44,625 nt of DNA from a virus, in the UHGV virus genome UHGV-0129366; one strand, 5' to 3'. Shown here in pieces: positions 50-24,828 of this stretch. The notes under the pieces are model-generated. The model made no database searches and was not told the origin of the DNA. It was given only the letters and a program-made list of their open reading frames with translations. The position numbers were made by a program, and so were the translations under genes. How positions within the stretch are numbered: the stretch's first letter is position 1; each line of letters begins with the position of its first letter.

Positions 50-2782
50 TCAGGTTTTTCTTATTAACCATGCTTCCAGAGCGGCAACACTGCGTGTAAT
101 TTCTTCGTGTGGAAGGGGGGCAGATAATGGCTGCTGCTCCAGTTGTGCGCATTGCTGGCTGGCGCTACGCATTCCCAGACTCGAGCAACTGCTTTTTAGC
201 TGATGTGCGGCACGCTTTATTTTCTCGTTATCCTGACTGGCGCGGGCAATGTCGATTTCATCGAGAAGCGGCAGGGCATGTTGTTTAAATAATATCAGCC
301 ATTCGTGGATCTTCTCCGCCCCCATTAAATGAGCATCTTCATTGAGTTGCGATACATCCAGCGGTTGATCATTTTTGACTTGCAGTTGGAGATAGTGCGC
401 CAGTAATTGACCGAGCACTTCACGCGGCACCGGTTTAGGGATAATCCCGCGAAATAGCGAACTGGTACGCTGGCGCAGTGTTTCGTCGATGACATGAGCG
501 CTAAAGCCAATCAAAACCAGCGACGGATATTGCTGTGCCAGTTGCCGGGCAAGCGTAATGCCGTCGATATCCGGCAGATCAAAATCCACCAGTGCGACAG
601 CAAATGGTTCACTATTTTGCAGTGTCTCTAAAGCCTGCGCGGCATTTCCTACGGCAACGACCTGCGCCCCACTGCTGTTCAACATCTCAACGGTAATCCG
701 CTGGGTTAGCGGGTTATCTTCAATTAACAGCAAACGTAAACCGTCCAGACGCACCGCCTGATTGACTGTTTTTGGCACGGGTGCAGTGGCAATACGTAAC
801 GGCAAGCGTAAACAAAAACAGCTTCCAACCTCCGGCGTGCTGGTGGCGCTCAGTTCGCCACCCATCGCCTGGGCCAGACGGCTACTGATAGTCAGCCCCA
901 GCCCGGTGCCGCCGCGTTTGCCGCTAACCTGAACAAATGGCTGGAAGATTTCAGCCAGTTTCGCGGGATCAATACCGCAGCCGCTGTCTTCCACTTCGAC
1001 CAGCCATTGTTCGCCATCAGTGCGACTACGCAGAATAATGTGCCCTTCGTCGGTGAAACGCAGGGCGTTGCTCAACAGGTTGGTAATGACCTGACGAATA
1101 CGCCGCGGATCGCCCATTAACGCAGTCGGTACATCGTCGGCAATTTCTGTTGCCAGGCGAATCGGGCGACCTTTCACCCTTCCGCTCATTAATTGCAGGG
1201 TACTTTCCAGCAGCGGGCGCGGTTCAAAGGGTTCATCGCTGACCGAAACATTCTTGCCGCCTGCTTCGATAGCCGAATAATCGAGAATATCGTTGAGGAT
1301 GGTCAGCAACGATTCACCAGAGTCGGTAATCGCCCGCAAATCATCGCGCTGGGCGTTAAGTGCGGGGTTATCTGCCAGCAGTTGCGCGGTGCCGAGAATA
1401 CCGTACAGCGGTGTGCGGATCTCATGGCTCATCGCCGCCAGAAACGCCGATTTTGCCTGGCTGGCTTTTTCTGCTTCCGCCCGTGCCTGTCGGTGTTCTA
1501 TCACCAGTTCCTGCAATTCAGCTGTACGCGCTTTGACCTGCGCCGCCAGCTGTTCGCGGTGGCGATTCAGTGCATGAACACTGCTGCGAAACGCATCCAT
1601 CAGCCGCCCGATGGTATCCAGTTCCCGTACGCCAGCGGTTTCCGGGAAAGGGGAGTCGATATCACCATCCAGCAAGCGTTGCAGCGCCTGCGTTTGTTCT
1701 GCAAGAGGGCGCGTGACTGAGCGATAAACCACGCGCCAGAGGATCAGAATCAGTGCGCAAAGAGAAACTAATCCCAGCAATAACAGGCTGTATTGCCCGC
1801 GTGCACTGGCTTTTTCCAGATGTGCCAGCCCGTGCTGATTACGCAGCTCAATGGTGTCGACCAGCTGACTGACTTCGCTACTAAACTGCGCGAATTGGGC
1901 GATGTTATTTTGGGCGAGAGTTTGCAGGTGATTGCTGATTTCACTGTCCTGCTGATACAGCGCCAGCAAATCGCTATATTGGCTAACGGTAGTTAACGTT
2001 GTTGCTACCTGAGTACGAACACCCGGATCTTCAATGCGTATTTGCCGACGTTGCAGAATTTTCACCGCATTATTGAGCTGCTTTTCCAGCGTTGGCGCAT
2101 TTTTCTGGATCTGTTCCAGCCCCAGATTCATCACCATTTGCTGCACCCGCAGGGCGCTAAGGCGCAGTTCATTCATCTGGTTAACATACTCAAGATCGAT
2201 ATCAATCAGCCGATCGAGTGCACTTTCTGCGGCCTGACGCTGATGTTGTTCGATCAAATCGTAAATCCCGGCCTGGGTCGCTCCGGCGGAGGTTGCCGCA
2301 TTATTCGCCTGACCTTGCGCCAGGCGTGCGATTTCATCGGCGGCGGCGACTATCTGCTGACTGAGTTGCTGTTGTTGCTGGCGAAGTTGCAAACGCTGCC
2401 CCACCAGTTCCCCTTGCTGACGTAACGAACGGGAGATCTCCTGCTCCTGTTGTTCAATAGCGGTGGTGTCAAAACCTTGTTCCCGTAACGCTTGCAGCAA
2501 CGCATTAATCTTCAGGCTTTGTGCGGTGAGCATTCGCCCCTGCGCCTGCCACATCTTTTCGTTATCGGCACTGGTCAGGTTCTGCGCGGCGAAAAGTTCC
2601 CAGGCGCTGGCTTCGCTCAACTGGCGCGCCATATTCATGGTAGGAATCAATGCCTGAGTGTTGTCTTTTTCCACCTGGCTGATAAAGCGCAGGTTGTACC
2701 ATCCCACCAGGGTACTGGTCAGGGTTAACAGCGCCATCAGGGCAAAGCCCATCCAGAGTCTTCGGGTCAGGGTTAAATTCAC
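50..2782 (-). CDS. torS: TMAO-responsive hybrid sensor histidine kinase TorS
   Basis: 910-aa ORF beginning [21 protein letters not shown]; HisKA H-box (SHEIRTPL), HATPase motifs (GTGLGLTIS), receiver domain (LLLIEDNP) and C-terminal HPt; recalled as E. coli TorS. Confidence 0.93.
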
Positions 2783-2876
2783 GGTCGGTGCACTTTAGGT
2801 GAATAAGTTGTATATTTAAAATCTCTTTGACTATCAATGAATTAATATAAGCAGGTCATTATTAGTCAAAATAAAA
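2783..2876. other. attL: Candidate attL (core plus P-prime arm) between torS start and int 3' end
   Basis: AT-rich 94-bp junction; segment agtcaaaataaaatcatttgtcgatttcaattttgtccc resembles the lambda P-prime arm next to int; flanking core-side sequence differs from lambda. Confidence 0.45.
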
Positions 2877-3950
2877 TCATTTGTCGATTTCAATTTTGTC
2901 CCATTCCCGTCCACGGCTATCCCTATACCGCGCAGCCATTGAATCTGATTTATGCCCGAGAAGACGTTGAGCAAACTTATCGCCAATCTGGTTCCGGTAT
3001 AGCCTTGCTGACAGGCTACGCAGTTCATGGAATGTTGGCGGGTTTCCATCAAATGAGAGTCCAGATGCATTTCTCGCCTTTGTAAAATACTTTGATACTG
3101 TTTTCGGGGAAAGCGGATCGTGATGCTTTGATGCGATTATAGTTTCACTGCTGCTGGCCTCCCTGCATTTCTGTAGTGTATCAGCCAATGAGATATTGAG
3201 CGCGTCAATCGTTAGCATTAGCGGAATGGCGAGTTTAGCCCCTGTTTTACTCTGTTCAATGTGAAGATGGTTGTCGTTTATGTCTGACCATTTCATTCTG
3301 CATAAATCGCCCACTCTCTGCCCTGTAACGACAGCCAAATCCATCGCCAGCCTTAGCCAGATAGGGAGAGGTTCGGCTGCATGGTAAATCTCGACATACT
3401 CATTAGCTGTCAGCCTTGAGCGCCTTACTTCTGACTTTGCTGTACGGGTTGCTGTTACCGGATTCGTTGCCACATGCCCCTCGGCTATTGCTTCACGAAA
3501 AACGTCAACAAGGGTTGACCTGATTAATTTTGCGGAAGCTGCTTTACCTTCTGCTACGTAGGTGTTTAGCATTGCTGCCACATCTTTCGTTGATATGTCA
3601 GTGAGCGGTTTGTCCGGCAATTTTCTTCGGATTGCCCTGATTTTGCTGGCGTAGTCGAGTAGAGTTTTCGGCCTGATCCCCCTTTCGGTGAGGATTCTTT
3701 CATATCGGTCAAGCCACACATGAAGAGTGATTGCGTCACCGCCTTTAATTCTGTCTATCAGTGATTTGCGTCCGCTGTCTGAGAGTAACTCAATATTGGC
3801 CTGTATTGCTTCAGTGATTGCTATCCTCCTGTCTCGGCCTAATCCAAACTCTTTACCCGTCCTTGGGTCCCTGTAGCAGTAATATCCATTGTTTCTTATA
3901 TAAAGGTTAGGGGGTAAATCCCGGCGCTCATGACTTCGCCTTCTTCCCAT
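2877..3950 (-). CDS. int: Tyrosine integrase, lambda/HK022 Int family
   Basis: 357 aa, N-terminus MGRRRSHERRDLPPNLYIRNNGYYCYRDPRTGKEFGLGRDRRIAITEAIQAN and C-terminus near-collinear with lambda Int; catalytic R-K-H-R-H-Y context (HELRSLSARLY, LLGHKSD). Confidence 0.95.
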   Translation of the reverse strand: MGRRRSHERRDLPPNLYIRNNGYYCYRDPRTGKEFGLGRDRRIAITEAIQANIELLSDSGRKSLIDRIKGGDAITLHVWLDRYERILTERGIRPKTLLDYASKIRAIRRKLPDKPLTDISTKDVAAMLNTYVAEGKAASAKLIRSTLVDVFREAIAEGHVATNPVTATRTAKSEVRRSRLTANEYVEIYHAAEPLPIWLRLAMDLAVVTGQRVGDLCRMKWSDINDNHLHIEQSKTGAKLAIPLMLTIDALNISLADTLQKCREASSSETIIASKHHDPLSPKTVSKYFTKARNASGLSFDGNPPTFHELRSLSARLYRNQIGDKFAQRLLGHKSDSMAARYRDSRGREWDKIEIDK

Positions 3951-21262: not shown

Positions 21263-21478
21263 ATGAAATCAATGGACAAAATCTCAACTGGCATTGCCTA
21301 CGGCACCTCCGCAGGCAGTGCTGGCTACTGGTTTTTACAGTGGCTTGATCAGGTCAGTCCGTCACAGTGGGCTGCGATTGGTGTACTGGGGAGTCTGGTT
21401 CTGGGCTTCCTGACTTATCTGACAAATCTGTACTTCAAAATCAGAGAAGACAAGCGTAAGGCTGCACGGGGAGAGTAA
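21263..21478 (+). CDS. S: Phage-21-type pinholin/antiholin S (dual start)
   Basis: 71 aa [53 protein letters not shown]... matches S21/EssD; the MKSM dual-start motif is present. Confidence 0.9.
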
Positions 21479-21482
21479 TTCA

Positions 21483-21833
21483 ATGACTCAAAACTATGAA
21501 CTGATTGTGAAAGGGATCCGCAATTTTGAGAATAAAGTTACGGTAACTTTAGCGTTACGGGACAAAAAACGCTTTGACGGTGAAATTTTTGACCTGGACA
21601 TCTCGCTGGACCGTGTTGAAGGTGCCGCGCTGGAGTTTTATGAGGCAGCAGCCAGAAGGAGCATCAGACAGGTCTTCCTGGATGGCGCTGCCGGGTTATG
21701 TGAAGGGGATGAGCAGTCGCCGGAAAAGCGCCCCATAATTTTAGAGGCGCAGAATGTGTGGATAACCTACAAAGGAAAGCTACCAGGAAGAATTACTGGT
21801 TCTCTGAAGACTCCTCCGGAATCACAACCTTAA
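21483..21833 (+). CDS. Hypothetical protein inserted between holin and endolysin (116 aa)
   Basis: ORF with GGGGAGAG SD; no family recognised. Confidence 0.5.
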   Translation: MTQNYELIVKGIRNFENKVTVTLALRDKKRFDGEIFDLDISLDRVEGAALEFYEAAARRSIRQVFLDGAAGLCEGDEQSPEKRPIILEAQNVWITYKGKLPGRITGSLKTPPESQP

Positions 21834-21896: not shown

Positions 21897-22430
21897 ATGA
21901 ACGCAAAAATCAGATACGGCCTGTCGGCTGCCGTTCTGGCGCTGATTGCTGCAGGCTCGTCTGCTCCTCAAATACTTGACCAGTTTCTGGATGAAAAAGA
22001 GGGTAACCACACTACGGCATACCGCGATGGTTCCGGTATATGGACCATCTGTCGTGGTGCCACAATGGTGGATGGTAAGCCCGTCATACCGGGAATGAAG
22101 CTGTCGAAGGAAAAATGCGACCAGGTTAACGCTATTGAACGTGATAAGGCGCTGGCATGGGTGGAGCGCAATATTAAAGTACCACTGACCGAACCACAGA
22201 AAGCGGGTATAGCGTCATTTTGTCCCTATAACATTGGCCCCGGTAAGTGTTTCCCGTCGACGTTTTATAAGCGGCTGAATGCCGGTGATCGTAAGAGTGC
22301 ATGTGAGGCGATTCGCTGGTGGATAAAAGATGGTGGGCGCGATTGCCGCATACGTTCAAATAACTGCTATGGACAGGTTATTCGTCGTGACCAGGAAAGC
22401 GCATTAGCCTGTTGGGGGATAGATCAGTGA
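21897..22430 (+). CDS. R: SAR endolysin (T4-lysozyme fold)
   Basis: 177 aa; N-terminal SAR segment [18 protein letters not shown]; catalytic E-x8-D-x5-T ([16 protein letters not shown]). Confidence 0.9.
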
Positions 22431-22894
22431 GCAGAGTCGCCGCGATTATTTATGCTCTGGTTATCTGCATCATCGTCTGCCTGTCGTGGGCGGTCAATCA
22501 TTACCGTGATAACGCCATCGCCTACAAAGAACAGCGTGATAAAAAAGTCAGTGAGCTGAAGCAGGCGACCGCCACCATTACTGACATGCAGCAACGCCAG
22601 CGTGCTGCTGATGTACTCGATGCTAAATACACGAAGGAGTTGGCTGATGCGAAAGCTGAAAATGATGCTCTTCGGCGCAAGCTTGATAATGGTGGTCGGG
22701 TGCTCGTCAAAGGAAAATGCTCTGTGCCATCCTCAGCCGAAACCTCCAGCGCCTCCGGCATGGGCAATGATGCCACCGTCGAACTCTCTCCAGTTGCTGG
22801 ACGAAACGTTCTCGGTATCCGGGACGGAATCATCAGAGACCAGACAGCACTGAGAACGCTTCAGGAATATATCAGGACGCAATGCCTTCGATGA
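22412..22894 (+). CDS. Rz: Rz i-spanin
   Basis: N-terminal TM segment [17 protein letters not shown] then coiled-coil; overlaps endolysin end; the start may be the GTG at 22427. Confidence 0.8.
22647..22853 (+). CDS. Rz1: Rz1 o-spanin lipoprotein embedded in Rz
   Basis: +1 frame inside Rz; [22 protein letters not shown] lipobox signal then Pro-rich PKPPAPPAW. Confidence 0.75.
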
Positions 22895-23115
22895 TAGAGA
22901 TAATTTTACTCATCATCCTTCACATCTGGCTCTGTAGACAGGGTGGTGATCACTTCTGGAGTGAATCCAGATTAAACATCTCATTGCTGATGCTTGATAT
23001 TGAGCATCTGGCGCGCGGTAAGGGGCTGCGTTGAGATAAGAGTCAGTCATTACAAATACCAGGATTTAGCCTCGCATTCGCGGGGCTTTTTATTCCCAAC
23101 TCTATAGGTAATTTT

Positions 23116-23595
23116 ATGACCCAGCATATTGGCGTAAAGCTGATTAACGCCTTTCCGATGACGAGACAGGCATATAACGATTTTCGTGGCTGGCAGCTTC
23201 CTGCCGGAGAAAACGGCGAGGACGAAGGCTATCTGGTTGAATATCTGGATGGCGGAAAACCTAACACCGATCGCTTTGATGGCTACGTTAGCTGGAGTCC
23301 AAAAGAAGTATTCGAAAAGGCTTATCGTCCGGTATCAGGGCTAAGTTTCGGCCTTGCCATGGAAGCGTTAAAACAGGGCAAAAGTTTGCAGCGGGCAGGA
23401 TGGAATGGGAAAGACCAGTTTGTTTATCTCGTGAAAGGGGAAAAATTAGCGTCTGCGTTGGGTTATGGCTTTGGCGAATATGTTGGCGAGCCAACTTTCA
23501 ATGACACGCTTGTATTGAAAAACTCACAGAACCGCCTTGCTACATGGGTTCCATCCATTGGCGACCTGATGGCTGAAGACTGGCAAATCATTTAA
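23116..23595 (+). CDS. DUF2829-domain protein (Tad2-like candidate anti-defence protein) with an unknown N-terminal domain
   Basis: C-terminal half FGLAMEALKQGKSLQRAGWNGKDQFVYLV...DLMAEDWQII matches the remembered DUF2829 pattern; flanked by terminator-like hairpins. Confidence 0.5.
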   Translation: MTQHIGVKLINAFPMTRQAYNDFRGWQLPAGENGEDEGYLVEYLDGGKPNTDRFDGYVSWSPKEVFEKAYRPVSGLSFGLAMEALKQGKSLQRAGWNGKDQFVYLVKGEKLASALGYGFGEYVGEPTFNDTLVLKNSQNRLATWVPSIGDLMAEDWQII

Positions 23596-23832
23596 CCATG
23601 TAGGCATTACAAAGCCTATCTACGGGTGGGCTTGATAATGAAACCGGAGTTAATTTCTGGTCACTAATTAACGGCAGTACAGCGAAACAACCCAAGCCAG
23701 TAAGTGGGGAAATAACACTGGCAGCCACTGAAAGATGAACCTCCAGCCTTATGGCAAAAAAGATTCTTTGTGGTGGCGGACTGATGGAAAGACATCCGCT
23801 GAATCGATGATGAACAAGTGGAAGAGGTTGTG

Positions 23833-24003
23833 ATGGTTTCCGTGAACAAAGATCCGAAGGAAGGCGTTGAATACATCACTGGTGCTGATGGTGTGAAAAG
23901 GCCAATGGCTTATTACAAAGCGGCCGAAGAGAGGGCAAGAATGGAAAATCCCCCTAAATGCGGATCATTTTTCGACATGCTGGACCTTCAATGGAAGTTG
24001 TGA
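23833..24003 (+). CDS. Small hypothetical protein (56 aa)
   Basis: ATG with GAAGAGG SD; followed by a hairpin plus T-run near 24013-24040. Confidence 0.35.
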   Translation: MVSVNKDPKEGVEYITGADGVKRPMAYYKAAEERARMENPPKCGSFFDMLDLQWKL

Positions 24004-24142
24004 ACAACTAACAGGTCGCTCAGGCGGCCTTTTTTATTGCCATCACAAAAGCCATTCCTTACTGAGTGGCTTTGATAATGGCTTATACCCTACACGGGAT
24101 AACTTAACTGATATCCCTTTTAACGGATAAACGGAGCCAACA

Positions 24143-24385
24143 ATGGCAGAGATTATTCCCATGACTGAAGAACAGAAATTCCAGTTAGAGATTTACAAAC
24201 TGGTCATGAACCAGAACGCAGCCGCAGAAGAAGCATTTCAATTCATTGGAACTGACGAGCTGAAGCTTGAACTATTCAAAATTCACTTCCAGTCAGGCGG
24301 CGCTAATTCGGATATCACGATCCGCACATTTGAAGCGGTGCGTAAATCGAAGGAAGCGTTAGACCTGTTCACTACCGGAGCATAA
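24143..24385 (+). CDS. Hypothetical protein upstream of terminase
   Basis: 80-aa ORF with ACGGAG SD. Confidence 0.4.
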   Translation: MAEIIPMTEEQKFQLEIYKLVMNQNAAAEEAFQFIGTDELKLELFKIHFQSGGANSDITIRTFEAVRKSKEALDLFTTGA

Positions 24386-24387
24386 AC

Positions 24388-24828
24388 ATGGCGCGCCCAA
24401 CAAAGTATCAAGAGGCGTACGCCGAACAGGCACGCAAACTGTGCTTGCTGGGCTACACCGATGCAGAGCTTGCTGATTTCTTCGAAGTCAGTGAGTCAAC
24501 TATTAACAAGTGGAAGCTTGATTATCCTGAGTTTTCGGAGTCCATAAAAAAGGGTAAGGCCGTCGCTGATGCAGAAGTTAGTGATCGTCTTTATCAACGC
24601 GCTATGGGCTTCGTGGCTCCAGATATCGATATTCGTGTTATTGAAAACAGAATTGTCGAAACTCCGCTTGAGAAGTATTACCCGCCTGATACAACCGCTG
24701 CCATTTTCTGGCTTAAGAACCGACAGAAGGATAAATGGCGCGACAAGGTTGATCACGAGCTAACAGGCAAAGACGGCGGCGCAATTCAGATTGAAACATC
24801 ACCGATGAGCACTCTATTCGGAAAATGA
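24388..24828 (+). CDS. terS: Terminase small subunit (Sf6 gp1-like)
   Basis: 146 aa; N-terminal HTH region; C-terminus ...GKDGGAIQIETSPMSTLFGK as in Sf6-type TerS; overlaps terL start. Confidence 0.85.
   Translation: MARPTKYQEAYAEQARKLCLLGYTDAELADFFEVSESTINKWKLDYPEFSESIKKGKAVADAEVSDRLYQRAMGFVAPDIDIRVIENRIVETPLEKYYPPDTTAAIFWLKNRQKDKWRDKVDHELTGKDGGAIQIETSPMSTLFGK

Follow-up and report, generated by a model that had tools for sequence, protein, structure and literature searches.

The virus genome UHGV-0129366, a stretch of 44,625 nucleotides (nt) that is called the window throughout, carries at positions 23116 to 23595 of its plus strand a gene for a protein of 159 amino acids (aa) in which an N-terminal module is joined to a Tad2 (DUF2829) domain. 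The window belongs to a P22-like (Lederbergvirus-type) phage or prophage of Escherichia coli, kin to CUS-3, phiv205-1, and Kapi1, and the gene, carried by such a prophage, very probably specifies a Tad2-family sponge for immune signals. Its C-terminal domain (aa 75-159) has the sequence, the fold, and the core ligand-pocket residues of Tad2. The function that a first-pass annotation of the window had attached to this domain, the inhibition of Thoeris defense, is correct but already known, through a protein that differs from this one at a single residue. What interest remains attaches to the N-terminal module and to the way in which the genomic slot of the gene is built from cassettes.

The open reading frame (ORF) starts with an ATG, which an AGG motif of Shine-Dalgarno type precedes by a few bases, and ends with a stop codon at 23593-23595. 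PHROG 872 matched the protein over its full length (E = 1.9e-69), and further PHROGs covered just the first ~74 or just the last ~85 residues, a split which indicates that the protein consists of two modules. The N-terminal module, aa 1-72 (23116-23331, plus strand), is a conserved small beta-barrel with the motif IG.K..A.PM.R..YN..RGW.LP..E...D.GYLVEY.DGG..N.....GY[IV]SWSP...F...Y, and the Tad2 domain is encoded by 23338-23592 of the same strand. Phage HZ41 and prophages of E. coli encode proteins 99 to 100% identical to this one; among 5426 complete E. coli genomes, 45 contained the gene, in every case on the chromosome, under the PGAP name "DUF2829 domain-containing protein." A PADLOC scan of the whole protein and of the N-terminal module returned nothing, as is expected for an anti-defense gene.

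The DUF2829 pattern that the first-pass annotation had recognized by eye in the C-terminal half was borne out by a profile search. Pfam family PF11195, the "Thoeris anti-defense 2-like domain," matched aa 77-159 with an E value of 6.4e-22 and a score of 78.3 bits, where the curated cutoff is 25, and the match spans profile positions 2 to 73 of 73 and is far above chance. In a phmmer comparison with the sequences of all PDB chains, the top match was SPO1 Tad2 (Gp34.65; 8SME, 8WJE), with E = 3e-26 over aa 75-159, followed by ModTad2 of a Myroides prophage (9EIB; E = 1.6e-18) and another chain named Tad2 (8V3E; 1.9e-18). Matches to SptTad2, HgmTad2/AcrIIA7, and pdAcrIIA7 were limited to about 35 to 38 residues, those to 8kbi and 8wjd stopping at ~38. 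PHROG 643 also gave a weak match to the Tad2 domain; its label, "transcriptional regulator," looks like an annotation transfer without backing in the current literature.

SPO1 Tad2 (PDB 8SME/8SMF/8SMG, 8WJE) is an 89-aa single-domain protein that, unlike the window protein, has no N-terminal module. Over the shared domain, 41 of 85 residues (48%) are identical with zero gaps. Because the alignment is ungapped, the insertion between strands beta2 and beta3 is as short as in SPO1 Tad2, at 24 residues, and the window protein lacks the insertion of 35 to 41 residues, between beta2 and beta5, which in HgmTad2 and SptTad2 forms a cyclic-dinucleotide pocket. In SPO1 Tad2, the main contacts to the signal 1''-3' glyco-cyclic ADP-ribose (1''-3' gcADPR, or 3'cADPR) are made by W25, N26, W73, and D79; T78, I63, and T65 line the adenine side, and N26, D67, H71, W73, S76, and D79 coordinate water (10.1101/2023.05.01.538930). 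The four main contacts correspond here to W96, N97, W144, and D150, and S76 corresponds to S147, all of them conserved in 40 to 41 of 41 aligned family members. Their codons lie on the plus strand at 23401-23406 (W96-N97), 23545-23547 (W144), 23554-23556 (S147), and 23563-23565 (D150).

The activity of a nearly identical protein is on record in the study of Yirmiya et al. (10.1101/2023.05.01.538930), the main text of which states that five Tad2 homologues were cloned into Thoeris-expressing Bacillus subtilis and that four of the five inhibited Thoeris. Supplementary Table 12 of the same study lists a 159-aa homologue from E. coli AIEC_UM149 (IMG gene 2729517083) as "Experimentally verified: Yes"; homologues from Maridesulfovibrio bastinii and Ruminococcus callidus also carry a "Yes," and the one from Myroides odoratus is given as "Tested, not active." The window protein and the AIEC_UM149 protein have the same two domains and the same length and are identical at 158 of 159 residues, the sole difference being A94V; alanine 94 of the window protein is the family consensus, at a position that adjoins the GWNG pocket loop. 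The IMG/VR contig of the AIEC_UM149 genome (L015) encodes exactly the tested sequence; this contig is the prophage of that genome and has the gene in the same P22-like slot. The tested construct comprised the full 159 aa, and the N-terminal module thus does not block anti-Thoeris activity. By contrast, a 48-aa helical head domain blocks the anti-CRISPR activity of pdAcrIIA7 (PMC13133391). With profile, sequence, fold, and pocket residues in agreement and the AIEC_UM149 protein listed as verified, the Tad2-like anti-defense function of the first-pass annotation was upheld, and an annotation as Tad2 anti-Thoeris sponge is justified for this prophage gene, with an experimental record one residue away.

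By analogy with the crystal structures of SPO1 Tad2 and HgmTad2, the Tad2 domain would assemble into a homotetramer whose two pockets lie where protomers meet, and these pockets would sequester the 3'cADPR made by Toll/interleukin-1 receptor (TIR) proteins. With the signal sequestered, the ThsA effector would never be activated, and abortive infection would fail. AcrIIA7 offers a precedent for an extra N-terminal domain that is compatible with a Tad2-type tetramer (PMC13133391). The position of the gene suggests that it would be transcribed with the Q-antiterminated late operon, through the hairpins that flank it, and concurrently with the structural proteins.

Several points weigh against this account. 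For the AIEC_UM149 homologue, the support consists of a phenotype flag in a supplementary table, and the sequestration of a ligand would follow from membership in the family. We infer both the tetramer and the late-operon expression of the window protein. The activity assay was heterologous, using a Bacillus Thoeris system in B. subtilis rather than E. coli with a native phage (10.1101/2023.05.01.538930). The pocket itself also departs from that of SPO1 Tad2, with T65, D67, H71, and T78 replaced here by N136, Q138, A142, and G149. These residues (aa 136-150, 23521-23565) constitute a minority pocket subtype found in ~10 of 41 family members, the majority keeping the SPO1-like T, D, V, and T. 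Given these changes on the adenine side, affinity or specificity could differ, for example toward histidine-conjugated ADP-ribose (His-ADPR) or N7-cyclic ADP-ribose (N7-cADPR), which have been reported as ligands for other Tad2 homologues (10.1101/2025.08.24.671296), and the residues of this subtype might tune specificity.

It is therefore conceivable, if somewhat doubtful, that the protein is a sponge of Tad2 fold whose relevant ligand in E. coli is another signal, acting besides or instead of 3'cADPR: His-ADPR of type II Thoeris, N7-cADPR of type IV, the cyclic nucleotide monophosphates of Pycsar, or the dinucleotides of CBASS. Tad2 homologues are functionally diverse, several of them acting against more than one system (10.1101/2025.08.24.671296); together with the unusual adenine-side residues, this diversity favors a different or an additional ligand. 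One member of the family, ModTad2 (9EIB), binds His-ADPR and cyclic UMP and is inactive against type I Thoeris. The near-identical AIEC_UM149 homologue, however, has a record of activity against type I Thoeris, which indicates that the adenine-side positions tolerate change, and the SPO1 length of the beta2-beta3 insertion argues against dinucleotides in particular. HgmTad2 (8KBI) owes its cyclic-dinucleotide pocket to a long insertion of its own which the window protein does not have, and the CBASS target entertained in the first-pass annotation accordingly lost its footing. We continue to regard a 3'cADPR sponge directed against type I Thoeris as the better description of the Tad2 half.

The partial resemblance to AcrIIA7 raises a further alternative, namely, that the gene encodes an anti-CRISPR protein that binds trans-activating CRISPR RNA (tracrRNA), as the automatic label of the homologue in phage Huey suggests. 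DUF2829 does include AcrIIA7, which binds tracrRNA when it is without its head domain (PMC13133391); the Huey gene (CDS0064) is annotated as an anti-CRISPR, and the window protein matches 8kbi and 9kzr weakly. We nevertheless consider this reading highly improbable and rejected it. The likeness to AcrIIA7 is confined to aa 76-111 (E = 4e-6 and 1.6e-5), whereas the match to SPO1 Tad2 covers the full domain, and the AcrIIA7 insertion that bears the basic-groove residues K93 and R101 is absent. To our knowledge, moreover, E. coli has type I CRISPR systems, with no Cas9 or tracrRNA and no type II-A system. Full-length AcrIIA7, with its N-terminal head domain in place, is inactive as an anti-CRISPR (PMC13133391). 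In Huey, an Acb4-family gene next to the homologue bears the same "anti-CRISPR" label, which points to generic annotation transfer; both automatic labels look like transfers without backing in the current literature. The labels "anti-CRISPR" and "transcriptional regulator" on relatives of this gene are best distrusted.

The N-terminal module is the less familiar half of the protein. The first-pass annotation had noted an extra domain of about 70 aa without an assigned function, and that description stands; Pfam gave no match to the N-terminal ~72 to 74 aa. Conservation within the two-domain family is stronger in this module than in the Tad2 half, with a mean identity to the query of 75% versus 52% and a mean column entropy of 0.91 versus 1.31. 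An HMMER scan with aa 1-74 over 1.84 billion representative proteins gave 1566 clusters at E <= 1e-3, of which 838 were at E <= 1e-10, with the module placed N-terminally, internally, or C-terminally in proteins of 72 to 370 aa. Partner classes were taken from Pfam and from jackhmmer counts. Among the best 149 representatives, the Pfam partners were Tad2 (51), PF21825 (38), and PF13876 (22). PF21825 is Sequestin, a sponge for 3'cADPR whose discovery came through its fusion to Tad2 and Acb4 (10.1101/2025.07.12.664507), and PF13876 is Acb4, a family of cyclic GMP-AMP sponges (10.1101/2024.12.30.630793). Triple fusions also occur, in the orders Acb4-module-Sequestin (11 representatives) and module-Tad2-Sequestin (4 representatives) by the jackhmmer counts.

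Two further sponge families carry divergent forms of the module. Two Lockin homologues from Table S4 of the Sequestin/Lockin paper scored 33 bits with the hidden Markov model (HMM) of the module (E ~1e-7 per notional million sequences). The other family is RyR Tad (Pectobacterium phage vB_PatP_CB1 gp68; Fedorova et al. 2026 preprint), which follows the same plan of an N-terminal module plus a sponge domain; its C-terminal sponge, however, is an all-helical RyR repeat and not Tad2, and its homologous N-terminal domain is without several residues that are invariant in the main family. The window module and the CB1 gp68 N-terminal domain are 34% identical over 67 aa by BLASTP (E = 7e-6) and have the PMT, GYLV.Y, and SWSP motifs in common, and the module HMM scores CB1 gp68 at 22.8 bits. 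A Foldseek search against BFVD matched the module to the N terminus of a RyR-domain protein of Yersinia phage TG1 (E = 1.5e-4; template modeling score, 0.78). The module is thus shuffled by phages among at least five unrelated sponge families, namely, Tad2, Sequestin, Acb4, RyR-Tad, and Lockin. The possibility that the module is itself Lockin or Acb5 was rejected, as sequences and key residues differ.

Mean pairwise identity between modules was 0.58 to 0.60 within partner classes and 0.578 between them, and for 49 of 90 modules the nearest neighbor had a partner of the same class, where 42% would be expected by chance. The sequence of the module is therefore independent of its partner, which suggests an autonomous, freely shuffled unit that is under strong constraint. 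Fusions of one sponge to another, such as Acb4-Tad2 of Pasteurella phage Pm86, Tad2-Sequestin, and Acb4-Sequestin of Ab09 gp59, likewise join small autonomous modules, and like the window gene they lie in anti-signaling hotspots with Acb4 or Sequestin genes nearby. In those fusions, however, both halves are proven sponges, whereas in the window protein the partner of the Tad2 half is at most a putative sponge.

An AlphaFold2 monomer model of the module, computed from an alignment without the CB1 gp68 row, has strands at residues 2-5, 9-16, 37-43, and 57-62, a short bridge at 71-72, and two helices. In the crystal of RyR Tad, the protein is a dimer in which a swapped strand beta1 brings the sheet to five strands (10.64898/2026.06.04.730250). 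By homology to that domain, the window module probably forms strand-swapped dimers as well. A comparison of the module profile with PDB sequences gave chance matches only (integrin fibronectin type III, E ~1), the RyR-Tad crystal evidently lying outside the searched set.

What the module contributes can be framed in two ways. It could be a dimerizing scaffold that cross-links or stabilizes sponge oligomers, which fits the RyR-Tad crystal and also the behavior of the isolated CB1 gp68 N-terminal domain, for which the preprint reports no inhibition of type I Thoeris (10.64898/2026.06.04.730250). Alternatively, the module may be the more important part of the protein, an independent anti-defense domain that makes the gene a two-headed inhibitor. 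In that case, the 72-aa "SWSP" beta-barrel would be a sixth anti-defense module, either a sponge for another immune signal or a binder that neutralizes a host sensor of sponges or some other defense protein. We put this forward tentatively and hold it to be possible rather than probable.

A two-headed inhibitor would be in keeping with the conservation of the module above that of the Tad2 half, with its fusion to five validated sponge families, the same fusion logic having yielded Sequestin, and with a sequence that does not depend on the partner (0.58 both within and between classes). The module also occurs as a stand-alone protein, and the aromatic and basic residues conserved in it (K8, R17, Y20, R24, W26, Y43, Y57, W60, and Y70) would suit a nucleotide pocket. 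Against it stand the net acidic character of the module and the inactivity of the CB1 gp68 N-terminal domain on its own. That inactivity is weak evidence, because the CB1 copy is divergent and is without R17, R24, W26, and the DGG loop, and because the result reported for it concerns type I Thoeris. In addition, no "SWSP" sequence appears among the Table S2 candidates of a pocket-prediction screen of 84 sponges, and the architecture was thus not retested there.

The role of the module, whichever it is, could reveal either a general principle by which phage sponges are assembled or a new anti-defense activity. The module could also serve as bait. Sequestin was found by fusion logic, and unrelated partners of the module are by the same logic candidates for new sponge or anti-defense domains; if this is true, the ~30% of fusion partners without a recognizable domain would hold further new sponge families. 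Among the 149 representatives (P0121 to P0269), 44 have no recognized partner domain. Part of this group consists of truncated Tad2 fragments, and the rest bear unrelated extensions, as in P0237, P0165, P0243, P0226, and P0138, with a WDGH domain in P0241 and a RyR-like one in P0134. In Klebsiella phage K17alpha62 (L006), an ORF at 2926-3411 that encodes a fusion of the module with Sequestin lies under a 10-kb pseudogene feature named "virion RNA polymerase." That identity was rejected as a mis-spanning pseudogene annotation, probably an artifact of the record, the real ORF being the fusion.

The gene lies between lysis and packaging genes, where the first-pass annotation had placed it. On one side are the genes for a holin (21263-21478), an endolysin (21897-22430), and Rz (22412-22894), and on the other is a DUF2560 gene of the P22 gp71/Sf6 gp67 type (24143-24385, plus strand; PF10834, E = 2.6e-42), which is annotated in Sf6 and Gally and forms the conserved right border of the slot, followed from 24388 by terS, terL, and the portal gene. 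A terminator-like hairpin with a T-tract (23068-23097, plus strand; hairpin proper, 23068-23087; -16.4 kcal/mol, z = -4.57 by RNA folding) is located 19 nt 5' of the start codon. A hairpin after Rz had been described, and it is present, but it does not follow Rz directly, as a conserved 50-aa ORF (22882-23034, plus strand; phrog_11822, E = 4e-37) intervenes. This ORF overlaps the end of Rz, is Sf6 gp65-like, and has a hydrophobic N terminus; counterparts are annotated in Sf6, Kapi1, Huey, and Gally, the Kapi1 copy with a signal peptide. A second terminator-like hairpin with a T-tract (24013-24040, plus strand; hairpin proper, 24013-24030; -11.6 kcal/mol, z = -2.79) closes the cargo region. The hairpins were identified by a pattern scan together with RNA folding and z-scores; the pattern scan alone gave no excess of sites over shuffled sequence.

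The gene had also been called a moron. The variable, hairpin-flanked slot agrees with that term, but no plus-strand sigma-70-like promoter was found in 22400-24500, and the gene therefore looks like a cargo cassette that travels with the late operon as its passenger, and not like a classical moron with promoter, gene, and terminator. The second small moron that the first-pass annotation had seen downstream corresponds to a second cargo cassette with a 59-aa ORF (23824-24003, plus strand; phrog_5425, E = 1e-40), of which the phage collection contains an identical copy in phage Gally only.

The content of the slot differs among P22-like phages, which carry Rha, Acb4-family, GIY-YIG, or Tad2 genes there. 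Sf6 has gp66 there, which belongs to PF13876 (E = 3.6e-35); in Huey (L001) a gene joining the N-terminal module to Tad2 (2737-3237) adjoins the Acb4-family gene (3472-3852); Kapi1 has a module-Tad2 gene, and Gally has a gene annotated as "Rha transcriptional regulator, similar to P22 Rha." Of the 80 viral contigs nearest to the query, 77 encode the module-Tad2 protein, and in 31 of these 80 loci an Acb4-family or Sequestin gene is found within 4 kb, often beginning 234 nt past the stop codon. Direct alignment of the window with one of these contigs, L014, gave ~99% identity across the Tad2 gene and ~200 nt further, after which the cassette is replaced and identity returns at ~24044. The exchange is a clean one: window positions 23796-24043, with the 59-aa ORF and its hairpin, stand against L014:4680-5300, with an Acb4-family (PF13876) gene, and the flanks are ~99% identical. 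An Acb4-family gene occupies the position of the 59-aa ORF in L008, L014, L016, L017, L019, L023, and L027. By its position, and by its exchange with Acb4, the 59-aa ORF would be a candidate anti-defense gene.

Two related elements of about 40 nt lie 3' of the two cassettes. Copy A (CATTACAAAGCC...GGGCTTGATAATG; 23604-23640, plus strand) is directly 3' of the Tad2 gene, and copy B (CATCACAAAAGCC...GGCTTTGATAATG; 24040-24080, plus strand) is at the point where L014 identity picks up again past the swapped cassette. They have the common form CAT[TC]ACAAA(A)GCC...GG[GC][CT]TTGATAATG, and each contains a small AAGCC/GGCTT stem-loop. Similar in appearance to what phage Sf6 has annotated as "boundary sequences," the two copies may direct the exchange of cassettes. 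In P22-like phages, the slot from Rz to terS serves as a cargo site for anti-signaling genes, where Tad2 and Acb4 cassettes are swapped between conserved boundary elements, and it is a useful place to look for new inhibitors. A different insert is found within the lysis cassette of the window, a DUF1327 gene for a protein of 116 aa (21483-21833; PF07041, E = 3.8e-41) between the holin and endolysin genes.

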